This document shows positions 1,768 through 28,281 of a stretch of 64,000 nt of DNA, piece by piece. The stretch spans positions 50,289 through 114,288 of the forward strand of contig CAVSFE010000002.1 of the NCBI GenBank assembly GCA_963727315.1, in the 5' to 3' direction. Position numbers and translations under genes: made by a program. Position 1 is the stretch's first letter; every line of letters begins with the position of its first letter. This DNA comes from an uncultured Chloroflexia bacterium. Lineage in GTDB: Bacteria > Chloroflexota > Dehalococcoidia > Dehalococcoidales > RBG-16-60-22. The notes beneath the pieces were generated by a model, which was given only the letters and a program-made list of their open reading frames with translations, was not told the origin of the DNA and did not search any database.

Positions 1768-2727
1768 CTAACCCGTCCAGTTCTGTCCGATTAGAATGAC
1801 ATCAAGTACGTTAACCGTTCCATTTTCGTTGATATCTTCGGTAATCCATCCATTCGTGCCGGTCGCATTCCAGTGCTGGGTGACCGTTATTATGTCAAGT
1901 ACATTCACTTTTCCGTCGCCGTTGACATCCGTCTGGTAGACATTATTTACGGTTATGGTAATGTCCTCGGTATCATTCGCGCTGTTAGCGGATACTACGA
2001 AGTGCACGTTGTGATAGCTCCCTGCCTGACGGTAAGATGGCATCCAGGTGAATGTCTTCGTGGCGGGGTTAAAAGTTGCTCCGCTGGGCATACCGGAAGC
2101 TGAGTATGTCAAGGGGTCTCCGTCGGGGTCGTTAGCCGATACGGTGAAGGTAAGTGTTGTCCCTTCGTTGACCGTCTTATTGCCGATGTTGGCAAGTACT
2201 GGCGGTCGGTCCACATTAACGGTGCCGTTATTCACGGTTACAGGTACGGAATTGCCTGCCACGTCCCCGACGACTACATACGATAGCGTTAATGGGCAAC
2301 TGCCCCCGGCGCTCCCGGCCCTCATCGTGATGACCGCGAATGTCCCCGCCTGGGCTACCGTCTGCCCCGGACTTATTATCACCCCGAACACTCCGGTGAT
2401 GGTCCCGGCTATGTTATCTATCTGGCCGGCATTAAAGTAGGTGCTGGCGCCGCCCTGGTTCAGCAAATTTCCTTCCGTAACGTTGTCTACGGTGATAATA
2501 TTGGGATTATAACTCAGGTTAAATTGCATACCGGCGATGGCATTATTGGGCGTGACGTTTATGCCGATGGTGCACTGTTGCCCGGGGACAATGGCGCCGG
2601 CCGGGACTGAAACGCTGACAACGGCGTTGCCCGCGGCGTAGGCTAGACCGGGGAGAAGAATCACCAGAGAAATGACCAGAAAGATAGCCAGTGTTCTTAA
2701 ATATCTTAAGACATTTTTACTTCTCAT
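1768..2727 (-). CDS. Secreted cohesin + Ig/cadherin-like + dockerin protein (adaptor-scaffoldin-like)
   Basis: Signal peptide; cohesin-like AGMQFNLSYNP; Ig-like NEGTTLTFTVSANDPDGDPLTYSASGMPSGATF; C-terminal duplicated Ca-loop DVNGDGKVNVLD...DINENGTVNVLD. Confidence 0.85.
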   Translation of the reverse strand: MRSKNVLRYLRTLAIFLVISLVILLPGLAYAAGNAVVSVSVPAGAIVPGQQCTIGINVTPNNAIAGMQFNLSYNPNIITVDNVTEGNLLNQGGASTYFNAGQIDNIAGTITGVFGVIISPGQTVAQAGTFAVITMRAGSAGGSCPLTLSYVVVGDVAGNSVPVTVNNGTVNVDRPPVLANIGNKTVNEGTTLTFTVSANDPDGDPLTYSASGMPSGATFNPATKTFTWMPSYRQAGSYHNVHFVVSANSANDTEDITITVNNVYQTDVNGDGKVNVLDIITVTQHWNATGTNGWITEDINENGTVNVLDVILIGQNWTG

Positions 2728-2736
2728 TTTTCTCTC

Positions 2737-5457
2737 CTATACTGTCCAGTTCCGTACGACGGAAGCGATATCCAGTATGTTGATAATGCCGTCCTTATTG
2801 ACGTCTTCCGTAATCCAGCCATTCGCGCCGGTTTCACCCCAATGCTGGGCGATACTTATTATGTCAAGTATATTGACTATTCCATCACCGTTGATATCGG
2901 GATCTCCGATTGGCTGGTCGGAGGCTCCCGAACCGACTGGAACCAGCAGATACTTAGGGTCGTGCCAGACGAAGGGGGGTATCCCAACAAACCAGAAATA
3001 GTTGTAAGTATTGTTGTTGTTCAGCGTCAGTTTCCAAAGACCAGCTACAGGGTGGGTTATGGTGCTTTGCCCGGATGTGTTAAATAGGAAATTATGGTCT
3101 ACATTGTTAGGATCGGTGAGCCTACCGCTCATCGCCAGAATACCGTTACCTTGGAAGGTGAAATTGTCAGTTCCCGCAGGCACGTAGAAATACTGGACAT
3201 TGGCTCTATATTCCCAAGGCGCATTATAACCTACAGCATCACTCTCAACATTAAGAAGATTACCATGACCATCAGCAATTATTGAAGCAGGTCTATTGGG
3301 AACATCAATATAGACCTGTCTGTTATTTTCTGGCACGTTAGAAGTAGCATGGAGAATATAGTTGCCCGCGATGGTAGCCGTAAAGTTCACGGAAATCCAA
3401 TCCGTGACGCCATCATGGGAGTAAGTCCCGACGAGCATGTTGCCCGGGTCATACATTTGTAGATAGACATTCGGGGTCCCCTCGTATTCCACGGTCTTAA
3501 TTCTTATGGTGATGGTCTCGTTGCCGTTTGATGGTATAAGGATGTCGCGGTTGTTGCCAAAGAGCGGTGTAACGCTCGCTGTCACGTTGTCGCCGAGGGC
3601 CTGCAAGCTGATTGTCCTGGGGTTCACCCAGTCAAGACCCCAGCCGTCGCTGGCAAATTCTGTCACTCCCTCATTCAGCCAGTCCTCCGTCTCTCCCACA
3701 CTCGGCGCATTAAAGTCCTGAAGGGCATCGACTTGGCTCTTGGAATAACCCCTGCTATACAACTCTTCCCGCAGGGCATCCTCAACATAGTAATAGGCTA
3801 CCATATAGGTGTCTCGAATTTTACAGTTGAATGTGTAGAAGTCCTGAAGGTCAGAGTTGCTTAGATTATCAATCCCAATATTGTGCCATTTCCAAACATA
3901 ACGTGTGTAGTATTCCAGTTGCCTAATTCTTGCAAGAATAGCATTGTCACCAGCAGCTAGAGTCTCGGCAGACTGCAAATCTCTATACATCTTACCTAGA
4001 GAATCATTGTCGGTATTACGCTGCTCATACCAATGCTGCATGACCGTAGAAGCAGCCCCGAAAGCCTTGGTATAAAAGTCATCTAATAGGTCACTAATGC
4101 TGAGGCTTGAATCCCAATACAGTTTTGTAAGGAGGTAATACATGAGACCACCAGAACCACCCCAGCTGTCTGTACCTTCGCCAACAACAGAGACTATCCC
4201 CTTGTTGTAGCACCACTTGACGAAATTGAGGCAGTCCCAGCCTACTCCCATCATCTGACTGGTTGGAGCGTCCTCTTCGGGATACCACAGGTCTAGGTAG
4301 TCATAGACCCCGACTTTGACGCCCTTTCCAAGAAATTCATCCACCCTCTGGGTATCGGTGAGGTTGCTACAGTTGAAGCCGCGGGTTATAACGACGAAGA
4401 CATTGGGTTTGAGAGAGAATGATGGCACGGCAGATGAACCTTCATAGGCTAGGACGCCCACATATTTCCCGGGGTAATCCCCGCTTATGTTGTTGGCCAC
4501 ATAATTCACCAAGCCAAAAATGTTGTCGGTGATGTCCTGAACATCCGTCAATGGATAGAACCCGTCCATGCCGCCATCATTAGGAGATATTGGCACGACC
4601 GCAGCCCATAAGTCGTCGTTAAACTGATAACTCTTTCCTACTATGTTAGCTAAGTAATACCTTGCATAATCAACTGCCATAGCTCTTACACCAGCATTGC
4701 TACCGTCAAACTGCCAGTATGATATACCTCGTCCATTCTGCAAGAAATAACTAGGATGTGCATTATAGTAGGCTGTCTTTTGTTCGTCTGTCATCGAATA
4801 CCAACCGACGGCATGGTTAAGAATTTCACCGTAGCTATGGGATGTTGAGTAGGTCTCTGCTCCGTAGCCGCGATTATGCGTTATCCAGTTTTTAAAGGCA
4901 GTTGACCCGCCAGGGATATAAGTATCTTGCGGGCTCAAGCCTCCATATTGGCGCCAAGCGAAATCGGGTTCAACAATGATGTCTGTGCTTTCTAAAGAAG
5001 CCAAGCTATCAGGAACCACCGTCCAGGCGCTATTTTTAAAGAACCATCGCACACCAAGCTTTTCATCAAGCAGGTAATAAGCCCCCCATCTTACCGCTAT
5101 AGCCGTCTTGCCTGTAATTGTAATCCCATTACTATCAATAACAAGACGAAAAGCCTCATCGCCATGATTGGCCAACATGGCAGGATTAACCGTTAGATTG
5201 ATAGATGGGGGTGTTGGAGTAGATGTAACCACCGTCCATGAACGTCCCGACATTTTCTCTAGGTATGTCTCAAGCTCACTGGCTGCCGTTTCCAGGAAGG
5301 GATTATCAACGTCTTCTTGGGCAGGATTATAATAAATGGTATTGATGGCGTCCCAGCCCACCCCATTATCAGCTCTGGCAGTAGGAATTTTCATAAATGA
5401 TGGGCTAATTGTGAATAACATCATAAATATAATGAACAGACTGGCTATCTGCCTCAT
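2737..5457 (-). CDS. Secreted glycoside-hydrolase-like protein (GH20/GH67 N-terminal-like + DUF4838-like) with C-terminal dockerin
   Basis: Likely start ATG 5457 (AAGGAG RBS, signal peptide MRQIASLFIIFMMLF); AASELETYLEKMSG...EAFRL...GAYYLLDEKLGVRWF...PDFAWR; C-terminal DINGDGIVNILD...DVNKDGIINILD. Confidence 0.75.
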   Translation of the reverse strand: MRQIASLFIIFMMLFTISPSFMKIPTARADNGVGWDAINTIYYNPAQEDVDNPFLETAASELETYLEKMSGRSWTVVTSTPTPPSINLTVNPAMLANHGDEAFRLVIDSNGITITGKTAIAVRWGAYYLLDEKLGVRWFFKNSAWTVVPDSLASLESTDIIVEPDFAWRQYGGLSPQDTYIPGGSTAFKNWITHNRGYGAETYSTSHSYGEILNHAVGWYSMTDEQKTAYYNAHPSYFLQNGRGISYWQFDGSNAGVRAMAVDYARYYLANIVGKSYQFNDDLWAAVVPISPNDGGMDGFYPLTDVQDITDNIFGLVNYVANNISGDYPGKYVGVLAYEGSSAVPSFSLKPNVFVVITRGFNCSNLTDTQRVDEFLGKGVKVGVYDYLDLWYPEEDAPTSQMMGVGWDCLNFVKWCYNKGIVSVVGEGTDSWGGSGGLMYYLLTKLYWDSSLSISDLLDDFYTKAFGAASTVMQHWYEQRNTDNDSLGKMYRDLQSAETLAAGDNAILARIRQLEYYTRYVWKWHNIGIDNLSNSDLQDFYTFNCKIRDTYMVAYYYVEDALREELYSRGYSKSQVDALQDFNAPSVGETEDWLNEGVTEFASDGWGLDWVNPRTISLQALGDNVTASVTPLFGNNRDILIPSNGNETITIRIKTVEYEGTPNVYLQMYDPGNMLVGTYSHDGVTDWISVNFTATIAGNYILHATSNVPENNRQVYIDVPNRPASIIADGHGNLLNVESDAVGYNAPWEYRANVQYFYVPAGTDNFTFQGNGILAMSGRLTDPNNVDHNFLFNTSGQSTITHPVAGLWKLTLNNNNTYNYFWFVGIPPFVWHDPKYLLVPVGSGASDQPIGDPDINGDGIVNILDIISIAQHWGETGANGWITEDVNKDGIINILDIASVVRNWTV

Positions 5458-5835
5458 GAATAGCCATTCTCCTTGTAGGATCGTGTTTGATTTCACCTTT
5501 ATGGCTTGATTATCCTCGGGCATATGCTCCCTTTTAACAAAGTGAACTTCATACAATCAAATCCATCATTGACAAAGATCATGACGGAACCCATAAAACT
5601 AATATAACATCAGATGGAACTTAAAAAAATAGCCTATTGGTAACAGAGAAAGGAGTCATATCAAGATGCATTGTGTGCTAATTTGAGTTAGAATGGAGGA
5701 TGGTAAAGGCCTAATTAGATTGAGTAAGAAGAGAGGTATTTATGGTTATTCATATAGACGTTAGTCCTAGTTCTCTCTAATTACCGGGATAGTTTACCAT
5801 TAAAAATTTCTGCCGGATATAGTATATACTACGTT

Positions 5836-21338: not shown

Positions 21339-22860
21339 TTAGGAGGCGCTCTGGCCTTTTAGTTTGAGGAAGACCTTGTTGTAGCTTTCGACTACCTTCC
21401 GGAAGTGGAAACCCGAGAGCGACAGCCCCAGCGATATGGGGAGTTTGCGGGGACGTTTCAGGAGGGTCGTGAATACCAGCCTCCAGAAATAACTCTTCCC
21501 TTTGTCCACGAATCCCAGGACCCAGAGGGCCCTCAAAAAACCAGTAACATGAGATAAACGCAGTTTCGATATCCCCGCCGTCTTCCGGGGCCGGTATTCC
21601 TTCAGGAAGGTGACGACACGCTCGTAATAGTGGCGCGGCGAGTAAATGGTGTCCAGCACGTTTTTATAGCCCGTCATGAGTGTTTCGTATTGCATCTTGG
21701 GCACGAAGTTCATCGAAAAATCGGTATTGTCCCCGGTGAAATTATTCAGTCAGCCGGTTTTCTTTCTTAAGCCGCTTGTAGAGTTTTGTCCCCTTGGGGG
21801 CATTGAGCAGGCCGACCATGGCCGTGACGATGCCGCTCTTTTGGATAAATTGTATCTGTTTGCTGAAAATTGAGGCCGGGTCGCTGTCGAAGCCGAGGAT
21901 AAAGCCACCCATTACCTCGAAGCCATGGTGCTGGATTGTCTTTACCGCGGCGGCCAGGTCGCGGTTCCTGTTTTGCACCTTATTACACTCCACCAGGCTG
22001 TCTTCATGCGGCGTTTCGATGCCGATAAAGACCCGGTTAAAACCCGCTTGAGCCATCAACTCCATCAGTTCCTCGTCGTCGGCCATATTGATAGATGCTT
22101 CCGTGAAGAACAGGAAAGGATACTTTTTCTCCTTTGACCATGCAATCATCGCCGGTAAGGTCTCGGCTTTTAGTTTCTTTTTATTGCCGATGAAATTATC
22201 ATCGACGATGAACAGACTGCCCCGCCAGCCGCGGCGGTACAGCGCATCCAGCTCGTCCATCATCTGCTGACTATCCTTGGTCCTGGGGCGGTGGCCGTTA
22301 AGCACGATAATATCGCAAAAGTCGCAGTCGAAGGGGCAGCCGCGGGAGTACTGCAAGCTCATCGCCGAGTAGTGATTCATATTGATGAGCGGCCACATCG
22401 GGATGGGCGTTCGACTGATGTCGGGTCGCTCATCGGACGAATAGACGCGTTGTGCGTGCCCTCTGGCCAGGTCGCTTAAAAACTGCGGGAGCGTGACTTC
22501 GGCCTCACCCAGCACGAAGTGGTCGACTCCTTCGAACTCTTCGCAGCCGGTGGTGAAAAGAGGGCCGCCAGCTACCACCCTGGTCTTCAATCGGTTACAG
22601 CGGGCGATGACTTCCCTAGCTGATTCCTTCTGCACAACCATCGCGCTGAGGAAGACGTAATCGGCCCATTTGATATTTTCGTCGCTCAGGGAGCTTACAT
22701 TTAAGTCCACCAGCCTTTTCTCCCATTCGTCGGGTAGCATGGCCGCCACCGTCAGTAACCCCAGCGGTGGGAAATTGGCTTTTTTAGAAACGAACTTCAG
22801 CGCGTGCCGGAAGCTCCAGAAGGTATCGGGGTACCGGGGATAGACAAATAGTATTTTCAT
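21339..22860 (-). CDS. B12-binding radical SAM protein (DUF4070-type C-terminus), split by a +1 insertion near 21750
   Basis: PPLGLLTVAA B12 domain, SRGCPFDCDFC; deleting one base gives continuous ENRLLNNFTGDNTDFSMNFVPK joining ORFs 21742-22860 and 21339-21713. Confidence 0.85.
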
Positions 22861-23421: not shown

Positions 23422-23751
23422 TTATCGGCTTACTCTTACTTTACGGTAGCAATCGCTACAATAGACCGGCCTACCTTGACGGGGCTCGAAGGGTACTGAA
23501 GTTGACTTACCGCAATCGGCGCATACTGCCGGGTACATTTGGCGCCCGGGAGTGTAGCTGTTGTAGCTGCTATTTCCGTAGCTGTTACCACCGTTTCCAT
23601 AACGCTCTGCTTTCCTCGCCTGGCGGCATTCGGGGCAGCGCTTGGGCTGATTGGTATAGCCTCTTGACTGGAATTGCTCCTGTTCCGCGACACTGAAGAT
23701 AAAAGTCTTATTGCAATCGGAACATTCTAGGGTTTTTTCCTGAAAGCTCAT
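23422..23751 (-). CDS. Zinc-ribbon / CxxC-x17-CxxC domain protein
   Basis: CSDC...PKRCPECR and CADC...VPFEP...VYCSDCY; GAGGAGG RBS. Confidence 0.9.
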   Translation of the reverse strand: MSFQEKTLECSDCNKTFIFSVAEQEQFQSRGYTNQPKRCPECRQARKAERYGNGGNSYGNSSYNSYTPGRQMYPAVCADCGKSTSVPFEPRQGRPVYCSDCYRKVRVSR

Positions 23752-23864: not shown

Positions 23865-23893
23865 ATGATACAATAAAGTTATTCTATTGTCAA
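23865..23893 (-). promoter_or_regulatory. Sigma70-like promoter of zinc-ribbon gene
   Basis: Minus strand TTGACA (23893-23888)-17 bp-TATCAT (23870-23865). Confidence 0.65.
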
Positions 23894-23924
23894 ATGAAGC
23901 CTCCCTAGTTAGGGAGGCTTCATT
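23893..23924. terminator. Strong hairpin, probable terminator of kinase-PqqD-peptide operon
   Basis: Perfect 15-bp inverted repeat AATGAAGCCTCCCTA-gt-TAGGGAGGCTTCATT. Confidence 0.7.
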
Positions 23925-24031
23925 GTTTCTATAAAAAATTCTCTCTTTTCTTCTATATTAGAAGAGAGCGAACATATTTTACTTTATCATTATTGGTATC
24001 CCTAATGCTTTACCCGTGCCCCTATCACAGC

Positions 24032-24127
24032 TTACTCTCTGAAGCCGCTGCCGTGGTTGCCACAGAGCACTTCGGCTTTAAGGATTTCGGACTTTACCGT
24101 AGGTTTCACATATGGTTCTTTTGCCAT
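24032..24127 (-). CDS. Putative RRE-dependent precursor peptide, 31 aa (MAKEPYVKPTVKSEILKAEVLCGNHGSGFRE)
   Basis: GGGGAGGT RBS 6 nt before ATG 24127; YxxP leader motif; directly downstream of PqqD gene; below ORF-track cutoff. Confidence 0.75.
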   Translation of the reverse strand: MAKEPYVKPTVKSEILKAEVLCGNHGSGFRE

Positions 24128-24184
24128 AACATTACCTCCCCGGACACATAATTATTGGATTTTGCCCGGTTCTTCGACCTTTCC

Positions 24185-24454
24185 TTAAATATATTTTATA
24201 ATGCCCGCCTTTGTCAAGTTCTCGATTGTCTCCCTCGTGTCCGCGCGGGCTTCCTCAAGAGAAACATCGAAGCGGTCAAAGAGACTCGCCGCTATCTCAT
24301 CGATGCTGCGTTTGCCATCGCACATTTCCCAGATAAGGGTAGCTGTTTTATTCAATATGTGCGTCGATAGCCCGTCGTCCTTGATGACCACGACTTCATC
24401 GCCGATGCGGCGCCAGATAATGTCTTCAGCCTTTATCATTTTATCCGCCATCAT
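24185..24454 (-). CDS. PqqD-family RiPP recognition element (RRE)
   Basis: WRRIGDEVVVI...LNKTATLIWEMCDGKRSIDEIAASLFDRFDVS...L...GII; likely start ATG 24454. Confidence 0.92.
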   Translation of the reverse strand: MMADKMIKAEDIIWRRIGDEVVVIKDDGLSTHILNKTATLIWEMCDGKRSIDEIAASLFDRFDVSLEEARADTRETIENLTKAGIIKYI

Positions 24455-24474
24455 CTCTACTCCCTGCCAGCCTT

Positions 24475-25449
24475 TCACTTTTCCAACTCTCCCACGACCT
24501 GCCAGAGTGACTTCTCGTCCAGATTAAACTCGAGTTCATAGACCGGGACGGCTTTGGTCACCTCGTCGCTGAATTCAGACATAATCAAAAGCACCGCCCG
24601 TTTATCTTTCTGGCCGATACAGGCCGGCGTTATAATCTGTCGCATGAATCTTAAATATGTCTCCGTCCTGTCCAGGTTACGCACCAGGGTCTCACTGCCT
24701 TTTTTAAGCAGGAAGATGCAGCGTAAAGGTGCCTTCAAGTACCGTCGCGAGGAGACTCTCCCGAGAAAAGGGGCGCTCTCCACGTTAAGGCCGTTTCCGT
24801 TCTGTTTGGGGCGAGAGACCAGCAACATTTCGTCGTTGATTACCTCTCCGTCGCGTTTCCGGCAAAGGCGGGCGATGGTCGTTTTACCGGCTTCACTGGG
24901 ACCGGCAAATAACAGCGCCTGTCCCGAGCGCAGGATGCCGCAGGCGTGGACTATCATGGCCGGGGGATGACCGTCGTATTTCATCTTACACGCCGAGTAA
25001 TAGGCCAGCGCTAACAGCTGATTAATGCGATTGCCCTCCATGTCCGGGTTGGCGAGGCCTCTTTCGCCGGTAATTTTAATGTAACCGCGCGTCAGGTCGT
25101 ACTTACCGGAGACCACCTGGCTCGTCGACCTGAACAAATTTTCCTCATGAACGTAGTTGTTATCAGGCAGGGCTGCATATAAATCGTCCGGGCTCAAGCG
25201 GTCGGTCCCTTCCAGCTCTATGGTAATATCGGCCGGTTCTTTTGTAAGGAAACCATGGCACAACCGTTTTAGCTTCATCAGCTCCTTATAGTCTTCGGCA
25301 TCCCGGCACTTGAAGGCGCAGCCAACGCTGCCCATCCGCAGGCTAAAAGCATTTTTAAAGGGCAGCGCCCCTTCTCGTGCTTGTTCCTGCGGACTGACCG
25401 TTGCTGTCAGCGTCCGCTCGCCAGCGTTATTAACTGACATATATTTCAC
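24475..25449 (-). CDS. HPr-kinase-related P-loop protein
   Basis: VHACGI...LFAGPSEAGKTT...INDEMLLV...PFLG...PVYELEF pattern typical of HprK-related kinases. Confidence 0.8.
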   Translation of the reverse strand: MKYMSVNNAGERTLTATVSPQEQAREGALPFKNAFSLRMGSVGCAFKCRDAEDYKELMKLKRLCHGFLTKEPADITIELEGTDRLSPDDLYAALPDNNYVHEENLFRSTSQVVSGKYDLTRGYIKITGERGLANPDMEGNRINQLLALAYYSACKMKYDGHPPAMIVHACGILRSGQALLFAGPSEAGKTTIARLCRKRDGEVINDEMLLVSRPKQNGNGLNVESAPFLGRVSSRRYLKAPLRCIFLLKKGSETLVRNLDRTETYLRFMRQIITPACIGQKDKRAVLLIMSEFSDEVTKAVPVYELEFNLDEKSLWQVVGELEK

Positions 25450-25643: not shown

Positions 25644-25913
25644 ATGTTACTTCGTGATGAGATAATGCCGATGCTGACCATAAAGGATGTCGCCCGTCTC
25701 TTGCACATCCACGTCAATACCGCCCGGCGCTGGAGCGACCAGGGCATATTGAAATCTTATCGTATTACCCGGCGTGGCGACCGCCGGTTCCGGCAGGAAG
25801 ATATCGCCCGTTTTCTGGCGGAATACAACGATTTCAATACCAAGAAAGAACCCGACCGGGAGACCACCCAGGGTTCCGCCAACGACAAGGGTAAGATAGT
25901 TATCGGGCACTAA
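25644..25913 (+). CDS. Small excisionase/MerR-like helix-turn-helix DNA-binding protein
   Basis: MLTIKDVARLLHIHVNTARRWSDQGILKSYRI...GDRRFRQEDI; GAGGAG RBS. Confidence 0.88.
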   Translation: MLLRDEIMPMLTIKDVARLLHIHVNTARRWSDQGILKSYRITRRGDRRFRQEDIARFLAEYNDFNTKKEPDRETTQGSANDKGKIVIGH

Positions 25914-25964: not shown

Positions 25965-26771
25965 CTAATACTGTATCAGACTGCCTTCCGCCTTGGCGCG
26001 CCTCAGAGCTTTTCTAAAAACGAGGAAGGCCAGAGGCGTTAACACCAGAGCGAATCCCAGCAGGATCAGGATATCGTTGCGAACTTCGAATATCGAGTAT
26101 CCCTTAAGCATGGCCAGTCTCATGGCATCCAGGGAGTAGGTCATCGGCAGGACATGGGATAACGGCGTGAGCCAGCCAGGGAGCACTGATATAGGATAGT
26201 ACACGCCAGCCAGGAGCGTTGATACCCCTCCGAATATCCAGGCAATCGGGTCGCCTTTTTTTACCACCAGCACAATGGCCGCCGAAAGGATGCCGATGCC
26301 GCTGAAGCTGGCCACGGACAGTATTAGGACGATGAAGGCCGTCAAGAAATTCGCCTGACTTATATTGAATCCGAAGACCAGTCCCCCGAAAAGAAAATAT
26401 GCCACCACGTTCAACGTGGTCAGCAAATAGTCCCACAACGACGATGAGAATAGTATAGCGCTCAACCGGGTCGGGCTGAGGAGCATAATCTCCAGCGTGC
26501 CGGTCATCTGACCGTCGCGGATGCTCGAGGCGAAGCTGGAGAGGGACAAACCCAGGTAACCGTTAAAAGCCAGGCCGATGAGGACAAAGGAGAAATAATC
26601 GCCCCCGTATTGCTCAAGCTGGGGCACCAGGGCGTTGCCGAAAAGCCGCGAGAGGAAATAGAAGGAAGCTACCCCGAAGAAGATGCCGAGTATCTCGAGC
26701 AAAAAGGCGATGCGATAGCTCAGCGCGATCGAAAAATCACGTTTTAAGAAAGCCGTCGCGGTAGACATCAC
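25965..26771 (-). CDS. ABC-2 type exporter permease
   Basis: Six hydrophobic segments; GTLEIMLLSP; GVYYPISVLPGWL...LPMTY. Confidence 0.9.
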   Translation of the reverse strand: MMSTATAFLKRDFSIALSYRIAFLLEILGIFFGVASFYFLSRLFGNALVPQLEQYGGDYFSFVLIGLAFNGYLGLSLSSFASSIRDGQMTGTLEIMLLSPTRLSAILFSSSLWDYLLTTLNVVAYFLFGGLVFGFNISQANFLTAFIVLILSVASFSGIGILSAAIVLVVKKGDPIAWIFGGVSTLLAGVYYPISVLPGWLTPLSHVLPMTYSLDAMRLAMLKGYSIFEVRNDILILLGFALVLTPLAFLVFRKALRRAKAEGSLIQY

Positions 26772-27778
26772 TCCTTTTCCTTCTGTCCGCTTTTCAGGGC
26801 ATTAGTGAATATTTCTTCGAGCGGCAGCTCTTTCAATTCACAGTTATATACCTCGGCGCCGTTGTTGATTATTATCTGCAGCAGGCGGGGCAGCACCTGC
26901 TCACGGTTGGTTATCTTCAGCTCCAGCGTCGGTCCCTCTTTGCCGTTCCTGGTCAGGGTGCAGCCGAGCACGCCTTCGACCTGTTCGAGCTGGGCGAGGA
27001 CGGCCTCGGGGAAATTCCTCACCTGCAGGCGGCATTCTTCGTGGGTCTGGAAGACGGAGCGCAGTTCTTTCACCGAACCGAGGGCAATTACCCGCCCGCG
27101 GTCCATGATTGCCAGTCGGTCACAGAGCTGTTCCGCCTCGGTGAGGTTGTGGGTGGCCAGCACTATCGTCTTTTTTTCGACCACCACCTTTTCCTTGAGG
27201 AAGGAACGGACCGACTGCGCGCTGACAGGGTCGAGGCTTCGGGTGGGTTCATCCACGAAAAGGACCTTCGGTTCACTGAGCAGGCCCCGGATAATCGCCA
27301 TTTTTTGCCGCATCCCGGTGGAGTAGTTCTGGAACCTGATGTCGGCTTCTTTGTCCAGCCCCACCACGTTTAACAGCTCATTAATATGCTGGCGACTCTG
27401 CTGCCGCGGAAGGTGATAAAGGGACGCGTAAAATTGCAGGTTCTCACGGCCGGTGAGGCGCCAGTAAAAACTCCTCTCCTCGGCGTTGATTAACCCGACT
27501 AGGTTTTTTACGGCCTGTTCTTTTTTCAGGATGTCGTTACCGTAGACGCTGGCTGTGCCTGAAGTGGGCAACACGAGACAGCATAGCAGTTTGATTAAAG
27601 TGGTCTTACCGGCGCCGTTAGGCCCCAGCAGGCCGAAAAATTCGCCCGGCTGTATATCCAGGGTCACTTTTTCTACAGCCGTGACCCATTGTTTCTTTCT
27701 GAAGGGTAACAGTTCGCGGTAGCCAGAGCTACGGGCGAATCTTTTCGTCAATTCGTTGGTACTGATGGCCGTGGTCAC
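26768..27778 (-). CDS. ABC exporter ATP-binding subunit
   Basis: GPNGAGKTT, YSTGMRQK, VDEPT; likely GTG start 27778 overlapping peptidase stop (GTGA). Confidence 0.92.
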   Translation of the reverse strand: MTTAISTNELTKRFARSSGYRELLPFRKKQWVTAVEKVTLDIQPGEFFGLLGPNGAGKTTLIKLLCCLVLPTSGTASVYGNDILKKEQAVKNLVGLINAEERSFYWRLTGRENLQFYASLYHLPRQQSRQHINELLNVVGLDKEADIRFQNYSTGMRQKMAIIRGLLSEPKVLFVDEPTRSLDPVSAQSVRSFLKEKVVVEKKTIVLATHNLTEAEQLCDRLAIMDRGRVIALGSVKELRSVFQTHEECRLQVRNFPEAVLAQLEQVEGVLGCTLTRNGKEGPTLELKITNREQVLPRLLQIIINNGAEVYNCELKELPLEEIFTNALKSGQKEKE

Positions 27779-28281
27779 TTTATCCGCCTCCCCCCACAAA
27801 GCCACCCGAGTCTATCGATATATCTTACTACCCTTATCTGGTTGGGATAACGGCCCCGAGCGAACCAGGCGGTCAGCCGGCCGTAAACGCGTCCTGACCA
27901 TCCATTGAGCTTTAGCTTTCTCTCGTTTTCCTCGATTAAAATGACCCGGCCCATGACCTGCGTGTCGTTTACCGGCGGGTCGATATTTTTCATAGCGTCG
28001 CCTTTGGTTATCAACACTTTACCGTCCTTCCGGCTGTTTATTTTTACCAGTCGGTGGGCCGTCAAAGAGCCGTCCGGCCGCCGATAGAAAATAATGTCCC
28101 CTATGCCCACCGAACGGCCGTTCCGCGCCTCGACAATTATTACATCCCCGTTTTTTATGAAGGGGTACATGCTGTTGCCGTGGGCCTGAAAGCGCAGCCG
28201 GGCGCCGCGGTCGAGCACTTCTTGGCTCAACTCTAGAAAATCCGCCTTGTCGGTATTCAATTCTTTGTCCGGCATTTTCAC
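27775..28281 (-). CDS. S24/S26-family (signal peptidase I-like) peptidase without N-terminal membrane anchor
   Basis: GNSMYPFIKNGD catalytic Ser, GDIIFY, AHRLV, ITKGD, VMGRV. Confidence 0.85.
   Translation of the reverse strand: MKMPDKELNTDKADFLELSQEVLDRGARLRFQAHGNSMYPFIKNGDVIIVEARNGRSVGIGDIIFYRRPDGSLTAHRLVKINSRKDGKVLITKGDAMKNIDPPVNDTQVMGRVILIEENERKLKLNGWSGRVYGRLTAWFARGRYPNQIRVVRYIDRLGWLCGGRRIK

Follow-up and report, generated by a model that had tools for sequence, protein, structure and literature searches.

The 64,000-nucleotide stretch of DNA considered here (the window; contig CAVSFE010000002.1 of assembly GCA_963727315.1, positions 50,289 to 114,288) comes from a Dehalococcoidales-like bacterium of the phylum Chloroflexota and contains, on its minus strand at positions 24032–24127, a 31-codon ATG-to-TAA open reading frame (ORF) that probably encodes the LppA-like precursor peptide of a cyclase-free, lasso-related maturation system. 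The system appears to be of the type that produces linear polyphosphorylated peptides (LPP), and a probability of roughly 75% is assigned to this reading. As described for Paenibacillus alginolyticus DSM5050, the LPP cluster lppA-K-B-S-D-N yields linear peptides polyphosphorylated on Ser3 and cleaved by a signal peptidase I (SpI) (Popov et al., 2026, Nat Commun 17:6633, PMC13381572). The predicted peptide of the window, MAKEPYVKPTVKSEILKAEVLCGNHGSGFRE, comprises a leader (residues 1–21), a junction G26-S27-G28, and a tail, FRE. Its ATG is preceded at a distance of 6 nucleotides by the Shine-Dalgarno sequence GGGGAGGT (24134–24141, minus strand), read directly from the DNA, and thus both the ORF and the strong ribosome-binding site named in the original prediction, which was made from the letters of the window, are confirmed. 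The ORF is the last of six genes that follow one another on the same strand over 4.2 kb in the order signal peptidase, ABC ATPase, ABC-2 permease, P-loop protein, RRE, and precursor.

The precursor gene is real and conserved, is under selection at the level of the protein, and is always linked to the enzymes of the operon. Comparison of 34 distinct leader DNAs gives 0.258, 0.174, and 0.524 differences per site at the first, second, and third codon positions, respectively, and 3300 of 6932 codon differences (48%) are synonymous in the precursor frame, as against 10–11% in the other sense frames and 5–34% in the antisense frames; these statistics indicate that the gene encodes a protein and is under purifying selection. 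A profile built from 13 peptides of the family has a single match in the genome to which the window belongs, namely the precursor ORF (E = 4.4e-13), and 75 matches at E ≤ 0.01 in a collection of 5.8 billion proteins, ranging in length from 31 to 84 aa. The ORF itself is among these database matches (as P0053), indicating that a gene caller does predict it. None of the 75 carries a Pfam domain, the most informative name given to any of them is 'hypothetical protein', and no NCBIfam model matches any of seven family peptides that were searched.

The check proposed in the original prediction, a conserved small ORF beside homologous PqqD genes, gave a positive result in both sets of loci. Of 14 extended genome loci, 11 have, behind the PqqD homologue, a small ORF encoding the same N-terminus (12 peptides in all), and a peptide with the same leader is present in 20 of the 27 loci obtained from a metagenome scan with the P-loop protein. 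The three genome loci that lack the peptide comprise one with a run of N exactly at that place (L021) and two distant paralogous clusters (L033 and L034) having kinase-like proteins 26–27% identical. Six of the seven metagenome loci that lack it (L057, L064, L069, L075–L077) end, in the stored DNA, before a possible peptide gene, and the seventh (L068) has no PqqD gene after the kinase-like gene. The kinase-like P-loop gene itself occurs in 14 of 61 related genomes, the window's own included; it was found in 13 of 36 genomes of the same family and in none of 24 genomes from other families of the order. The kinase profile finds matches at E ≤ 1e-10 in 15 of 301 genomes sampled evenly across the phylum; the match is nearly full length only in the window's genome and in one other of the same class, and in the remainder it covers the P-loop half alone. 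Relatives bear such names as 'uncultured Dehalococcoidaceae bacterium' (L036, kinase-like protein 50% identical) and 'Dehalococcoidales bacterium' (P0175). The closest two relatives of the kinase-like protein, P0077 and P0078, have 87–88% identity to it.

Alignment of the 13 peptides reveals that M1, K3, Y6, P9, E14, and L21 are invariant, that E4, G26, and S27 are nearly so, and that residue 11 is V, I, L, or M, giving the leader consensus M.KEPY.KPE.KSE.LE.EAL...GS[PG]. Pooling of database matches and loci gives 96 distinct peptides, of which 93 could be parsed by the motif parser; in the other three K3 is replaced by R or the N-terminus is missing. A Gly-Ser or Gly-Thr pair lies 0–7 residues past L21 in 91 of the 93 parsed peptides (Ser27 in the window), in the forms GSP (43), GSG (37), and other GS (9), for a GS total of 89, together with two GT; two peptides have neither. 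The Ser is located 19–21 residues past the Tyr. Beyond the junction the sequence is hypervariable, with an abundance of Gly, Trp, and Cys, and only a minority of the peptides end in Ser. The original prediction had pointed out that the terminal Glu of the window peptide lies at a ring-sized distance from a Gly; this Glu has no counterpart in the homologues, and the point is not supported.

Several loci of the family depart from the arrangement of one RRE gene followed by one precursor gene. Locus L067 (2137–2545, plus strand) carries three precursor genes in tandem behind one RRE gene, encoding two peptides of 31 aa with 6-residue tails (PATFPG and PVNIPP) and one of 39 aa. In L024, L028, L029, and L075–L077, which form a sub-family, a radical SAM (rSAM)/SPASM gene follows the RRE gene; in L024, L028, and L029 it lies between the RRE gene and the precursor gene, and the precursor tail ends ..PS[FC]G[FV]CC... 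The presence of this tail in the three rSAM/SPASM loci in which a precursor is seen shows that tail class and accessory enzyme go together. In L023 (1728–2942, plus strand) a DUF362 and 4Fe-4S ferredoxin protein (Npun_F2552 family, below cut-off) is encoded between two Gly-rich precursor genes.

The gene immediately upstream of the precursor gene (24185–24478, minus strand; 97 aa counted from the listed GTG) encodes a PqqD-type RRE protein resembling LppB and the B1 proteins of lasso clusters, and it is the single PqqD gene of the genome. It matches PF05402 at E = 2.2e-15 with a score of 57 bits against a cut-off of 23.4, and its profile finds the solved structures of TbiB1 (5v1u, 3e-7), TfuB1 (6jx3, 4.4e-5), LppB (9x8z, 9.2e-4), and PbaB1 (9x90, 6.4e-3). 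Residues N43 and D80, the same in all 12 family members compared, align with N33 and D70 of LppB when an offset of 18 residues in the numbering of chain 9x8z_B is allowed for. In the published crystal structure of LppB, N33 fixes a kink at the leader Pro and D70 forms a hydrogen bond with the leader Tyr (9x8z; Popov et al., 2026). Counterparts of both partners in these contacts are present in the window family, with Y6 and P9 invariant in the peptide, in agreement with the earlier proposal of a precursor-like peptide behind an RRE gene.

The first gene of the cluster (27775–28281, minus strand) encodes a protease of the SipW/archaeal signal-peptidase type that resembles LppS and appears to be soluble. 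It matches PF00717 and passes the cut-off of TIGR02228 (61 bits against 51.85), and matches the SipW model NF046067 at 1.5e-8, below its cut-off. The columns SM.P, HR, and GD, which hold the catalytic Ser, His, and Asp (S37, H76, and D95), show no variation across the 13 homologues compared, and the spacing of 39 between S37 and H76 equals that between S29 and H68 of LppS (Popov et al., 2026). The protease belongs to the same family as SipW of Bacillus subtilis, an ER/archaeal-type signal peptidase I, and differs from it in having no N-terminal hydrophobic anchor discernible by eye. Since it is encoded together with an RRE and a precursor, the enzyme probably removes leaders in the cytoplasm, like LppS, and does not serve secretion.

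The P-loop protein encoded between the permease and the RRE (24475–25449, minus strand) is the candidate kinase, HprK-related and similar to ScmC and LppK. It has 324 aa, or 321 aa in its database form, which starts three codons later, and carries the Walker A motif GPSEAGKTT; a GPS..GKTT Walker A motif and residues H168, K189, T191, D206, and E207 are invariant in 12 of 12 family members. Matches to ScmC are found for 11 of these 12 (best E-value 2.3e-7), to HprK_rel_B for 10 (5.3e-6), and to HprK_rel_A for 8 (6.8e-8), in all cases below the cut-offs. With its C-terminal half only, the kinase profile matches HprK-like proteins from Bacillota and from other phyla; one of them, from a Bacillota locus (L052), is matched at 5e-13 and itself reaches PF07475 (Hpr_kinase_C) at 4.2e-4. 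PF07475 has one weak and unrelated match in the window's genome and no match at E ≤ 1e-15 in 151 Chloroflexota genomes. The entry PF27840.1, which is absent from the local Pfam copy, is precomputed on 120 of the 120 relatives listed for the P-loop protein; no mention of PF27840 was found in the literature.

Several results for this protein weigh against the proposed system. The only specific curated matches of the window protein are to ScmC (1.1e-4) and HprK-related kinase B (2.4e-3); the local Pfam copy, Hpr_kinase_C included, yields no match to it, its scores with the NCBIfam kinase models lie far under the cut-offs (ScmC, 21.7 against 125 bits), and searches of the sequences in PDB with the protein and with the profile return generic P-loop and ABC matches and no HPr kinase. 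The assignment as an HprK-like kinase is thus plausible but remote. These findings, together with an N-terminal half of ∼160 aa that is specific to the family and the pairing of the P-loop protein with rSAM/SPASM enzymes in related cassettes, would also suit a different chemistry, in which the P-loop protein is an ATP-dependent chaperone or scaffold or activates some other group, and G-S-[P/G] is a recognition site for the protease or exporter. Such a role is nevertheless considered unlikely, given that the Walker A motif and the invariant His, Asp, and Glu are kept in all 12 members, that 91 of 93 peptides retain a hydroxyl residue at the junction, and that LppK and the paeninodin kinases are equally remote HprK-like proteins and yet are Ser kinases (PMC13381572; PMC8498205).

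Under the preferred reading, maturation would begin with binding of the leader by the PqqD-type RRE through Y6-x-x-P9-x-V11, as in the solved B1 and LppB leader complexes. The HprK-related protein would then phosphorylate Ser27 of the G-S-[P/G] junction, possibly repeatedly, by analogy with LppK, which in B. subtilis places one to four phosphates on core Ser3 (Popov et al., 2026). The original prediction had singled out this Ser as a candidate kinase target; its near-universal conservation as a junction hydroxyl residue and the phosphorylation by the LPP kinase of a conserved Ser just past the cleavage site (Popov et al., 2026) both speak for that choice. Guided by the RRE, the soluble SipW-type peptidase might next remove the leader; in the LPP system LppS cuts after T-1, LppB is required, and unphosphorylated precursor is cut poorly (Popov et al., 2026). 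The likeliest cut is after L21, which would release CGNHGSGFRE with the Ser at core position 6. It is favoured because L21 is the last invariant residue and lies 15 residues past the Tyr, like T-1 after Y-16 in LppA, and it fits the earlier placement of the leader end near VL/C. An LPP-like cut two residues before the Ser, releasing HGSGFRE, is less likely, since residues 22–25 are not conserved. Export of the product by the ABC-2 pump is suggested by synteny.

The window peptide retains all conserved recognition elements and has a tail of only GFRE past Ser27, and can accordingly be regarded as a minimal precursor. This tail of 4 residues is the shortest among the 93 parsed peptides, being followed by tails of 6, 6, and 12 residues in a range that extends to 51, so that the caution expressed in the original prediction about the C-terminus was apt. 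One reading of the short tail, which falls somewhat below even odds, is that the gene is a truncated allele in which the variable core was lost by a nonsense mutation, a frameshift, or replacement of the cassette, leaving a leader and junction without functional cargo in an otherwise intact operon that is perhaps starting to decay. All eight database peptides with the leader of the same clade (..KPTVK[ST]E[IV]LKAEVL..) have 14–20 residues past the Ser, and the gene is the sole precursor copy in the genome.

Comparison with L053, the closest relative fetched (kinase-like protein 82% identical), bears on the same point. The leader DNA is identical at 69 of 84 nucleotides (82%) and the PqqD gene at 216 of 273 (79%), whereas over roughly 55 nucleotides past GSG identity is 31 of 59 (53%), with the likeness returning further downstream; this drop next to a conserved leader and PqqD gene fits a hypervariable cassette. 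The distance from GSG to the next conserved block is 55 nucleotides in the window and 59 in L053, and remnants of a former core could therefore remain behind the stop codon, where ∼45 nucleotides of unexplained sequence precede the block. Readthrough of the TAA would add nine codons, to ..VKH, and the +2 frame is open for a further 18 codons, although open frames of ∼20 codons are not rare by chance. Weighing against truncation, each of the other five genes in the cluster has its full length by comparison with its homologues, and the two 31-aa precursors that stand in tandem with a longer one in L067 indicate that tails of 6 residues do occur in the family. The variable region, moreover, gives no alignable signal with six relatives, so that no specific mutation can be demonstrated.

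An error of sequencing or assembly, by which an indel or miscall created an early stop in a longer ORF, is a very improbable cause of the short tail. The original prediction had suspected indels in the window, and the genome, assembled in four contigs, was possibly (this is a guess) obtained from long reads. One public read run (word share 0.06) proved to represent relatives, with none of 77 pieces being at least 99% alike, and leaves 23952–24171 uncovered. Indels in long-read data concentrate in homopolymers, and the three codons between GSG and TAA, TTC AGA GAG, contain no homopolymer longer than two nucleotides, which makes an error at this place unlikely; the neighbouring genes, in addition, have no frameshift. 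A nearby gene that might have been taken for an example of such errors, a B12-binding rSAM gene present as two ORFs of 372 and 124 aa some 30 nucleotides apart (21339–22860, minus strand), has the same two-piece arrangement in two genomes of the same genus (L021 and L022, 73–92% identity), and the split is thus a conserved feature rather than an indel error. As a tailoring enzyme for the peptide, the B12-rSAM ORF (21742–22860) was considered and rejected, because its synteny does not extend beyond the genus (it is present in 2 of 14 other loci examined).

A further interpretation of the short tail treats the family as a separate Dehalococcoidales branch of kinase/SipW-type maturation in which the Gly-Ser-Pro/Gly junction carries phosphate as a handle and the tail, of 4 to 51 residues, is dispensable or exchangeable. 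The window copy would in that case be a working minimal phosphopeptide of 7–10 residues, perhaps a signal or a unit that joins the adjacent polysaccharide pathway, and not a dead allele. This interpretation is regarded as unlikely.

The remaining features of the cluster concern export, regulation, and transcript ends. Downstream of the peptidase gene and ahead of the P-loop gene, the minus strand encodes a DrrA-like ABC transporter ATPase (26768–27805; TIGR01188, 2e-76, below cut-off) and an ABC-2 type permease (25965–26771; PF01061, 2e-16), both also identified by synteny. Between the exporter genes and the kinase-like gene lies a divergent gene for a regulator of the HTH_17/MerR type (25644–25913, plus strand), which is kept at the same place in 14 related loci with 63–97% identity and is likely to be the regulator of the cluster. 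A promoter-like TTGACA-18-TATATT site (24188–24217, minus strand; 11 of 12 consensus positions, a match to consensus only) lies inside the 3' end of the PqqD gene, and the same hexamers are present in L053; a scan of the 5.2-kb region gave 12 such sites, compared with 4.8 ± 2.2 in shuffled sequences. The site could provide the precursor gene with a transcript of its own. The hairpin reported in the original prediction downstream of the precursor ORF is present at 23893–23924, 108 nucleotides past the stop codon, with a perfect stem of 14 bp rather than the 15 bp first given and a loop of 4 nucleotides. Its folding energy is −25 kcal/mol (z = −6.66), and none of 200 shuffled sequences folds equally well; since only UUU follows the stem on the precursor strand, this strong hairpin does not qualify as a textbook intrinsic terminator.

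Directly past the hairpin, a gene at 23422–23751 (minus strand) encodes a 109-aa protein having two treble-clef CxxC zinc-finger domains (zf_Tbcl and zf_Tbcl_2); it has a promoter-like site of its own and no synteny in the relatives. The wider surroundings of the cluster contain two UDP-sugar dehydrogenases, a GT4 glycosyltransferase, a polysaccharide deacetylase, and a P-loop protein like a chain-length regulator. Elsewhere in the window (1768–5556, minus strand) are two large dockerin ORFs, one having cohesin and Ig-like domains in addition and the other DUF4838, and these represent cellulosome-style docking parts in a small Dehalococcoidales-like genome.

In distant phyla, five small ORFs beside HprK-like genes (L039, L044, L048, L051, and L083), picked by motif and adjacency, have leaders of the form [KR]-P-[YW]-x-x-P-x-[VI], and all five end in Ser. 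The leader in L048, from Myxococcales, is KKPYVKPEVKS, almost that of Dehalococcoidales. The Nitrospiraceae locus L044 (3052–9284, plus strand) comprises a PqqD gene, three rSAM/SPASM ORFs, a precursor, an HprK-like gene, and a gene for a 636-aa protein in which a SipW-like domain is accompanied by a sub-threshold NTP_transf_5 match. The idea that these distant loci with Ser-terminated ORFs are lasso clusters was rejected for L044, which has PqqD, rSAM/SPASM, and the SipW-like/NTP_transf_5 protein instead. The distant loci, L044 among them, suggest that the module of kinase, RRE, and SipW-like protease is much wider than Bacillota.

The kind of system has been known since 2026, and no description of the Dehalococcoidales precursor family was found in the literature that was searched; the available text of the RRE-Finder paper and of a 2025 paper on RREs does not mention kinase, HPr, S24, signal peptidase, or Chloroflex. 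Characterisation of LPP-type peptides dates only from 2026, and the window locus brings the same logic to uncultured Dehalococcoidales-like bacteria. The roughly 96 precursors define a clean architecture of leader, junction, and variable tail and constitute a second, sequence-diverse family on which recognition by the kinase, the cut site of the peptidase, and the role of phospho-Ser as end product or as a handle for decoration can be tested, with the nearly tailless window copy as a natural minimal substrate. The absence of a Pfam domain in 75 of 75 matches also illustrates how short precursor genes in Dehalococcoidales-like genomes escape family annotation.

Among known systems, SynChlorMet (SCM; ScmC TIGR04249, ScmD TIGR04248, ScmE/F TIGR04250/04251) is similar in that ScmC is the best-scoring curated model for the window P-loop protein, ScmD is among the matches of the RRE, and the six loci L024, L028, L029, and L075–L077 carry rSAM/SPASM genes. 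The window locus itself falls short of an SCM cluster, with ScmC at 21.7 against 125 bits, ScmD at 28.4 against 100 bits, and no rSAM/SPASM gene. No precursor is known to have been assigned to SCM.

With lasso peptide clusters the window family has in common a leader of the YxxPxL type and a B1/RRE protein. With lasso systems of the paeninodin type (PadeK/ThcoK), whose HprK-like kinases are Ser kinases that act on the linear precursor according to the available text of PMC8498205, the family shares the lasso-type leader motif, the B1-type RRE, and a candidate kinase remotely similar to HprK. Unlike them, the window family has no cyclase, no B2 protease, and no conserved Thr at −2, and its conserved Ser is located at the junction and not at the C-terminus. 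The lasso B2 protease family PF13471 is not matched anywhere in the genome (92.6% complete), and PF00733, the Asn-synthetase-like cyclase family, has no match among ten ORFs scanned around the cluster, its best match being a 645-aa AsnB-like ORF ∼33 kb away and outside the window. Neither a conserved Thr at −2 nor a conserved acidic ring residue is found among the 13 aligned or the 93 parsed peptides. That the ORF is not a lasso precursor, as originally proposed, is borne out by these results for the genome and the operon.

The LPP systems are the closest, and the differences from them are considered first, as far as the available text of the LPP paper (Popov et al., 2026) describes those systems. 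Some concern setting and form. LPP clusters are described as restricted to Bacillota, whereas the window host is Dehalococcoidales-like; the paper's text mentions no Chloroflexi, radical SAM, or ABC-2, and its Supplementary Data 1–2, on the taxa of SpI homologues, may include non-Bacillota. The window family also has a conserved divergent HTH regulator, its short tails have a high content of Gly, Trp, and Cys, an rSAM/SPASM enzyme is added in some of its sub-families, and its distance from Tyr to Ser is 19–21 residues, compared with 18 in LPP.

Other differences count against the assignment. In place of the MsbA-like pump LppD the window has a two-gene ABC-2 exporter, and the NTP-transferase LppN, which is present in some relatives, is missing from the operon; for PF14907, the only gene of the window's genome lies ∼25 kb away and outside the window, and in L029 such a gene is found beside the permease gene. 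LppA precursors are 35–200 aa long, with an N-terminal YxxPxVLxHQxIxFETxxS motif and variable C-termini (Popov et al., 2026). The extended part of this consensus (VLxHQxIxFET) is absent from the window family, and residues −3 to −1 are E/G-A/V-L instead of F-E-T, for which reasons the cut site given above is a guess. The junction Ser would be core residue 5–6 rather than 3, and two family members have Thr at the junction, although LppK left an S3T variant unphosphorylated. At 31 aa the window peptide is the shortest of the 96 family peptides and lies below the length range of LppA, and the window copy may consequently make nothing useful.

Set beside these differences are likenesses, again with respect to LPP systems as described in the available text. 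In both, the precursor carries an N-terminal YxxPxV motif, has a conserved Ser close to the leader/core junction, and varies at its C-terminus. Both also have a discrete RRE in which the Asn and Asp that contact Pro and Tyr are retained, together with a P-loop protein, HprK-like in LPP and putatively so in the window, a soluble leader peptidase of the SipW/archaeal type, and an exporter. Both do without a macrolactam cyclase and a B2 protease, and both are located in a neighbourhood of polysaccharide biosynthesis, LPP loci lying in capsular-polysaccharide regions (Popov et al., 2026).

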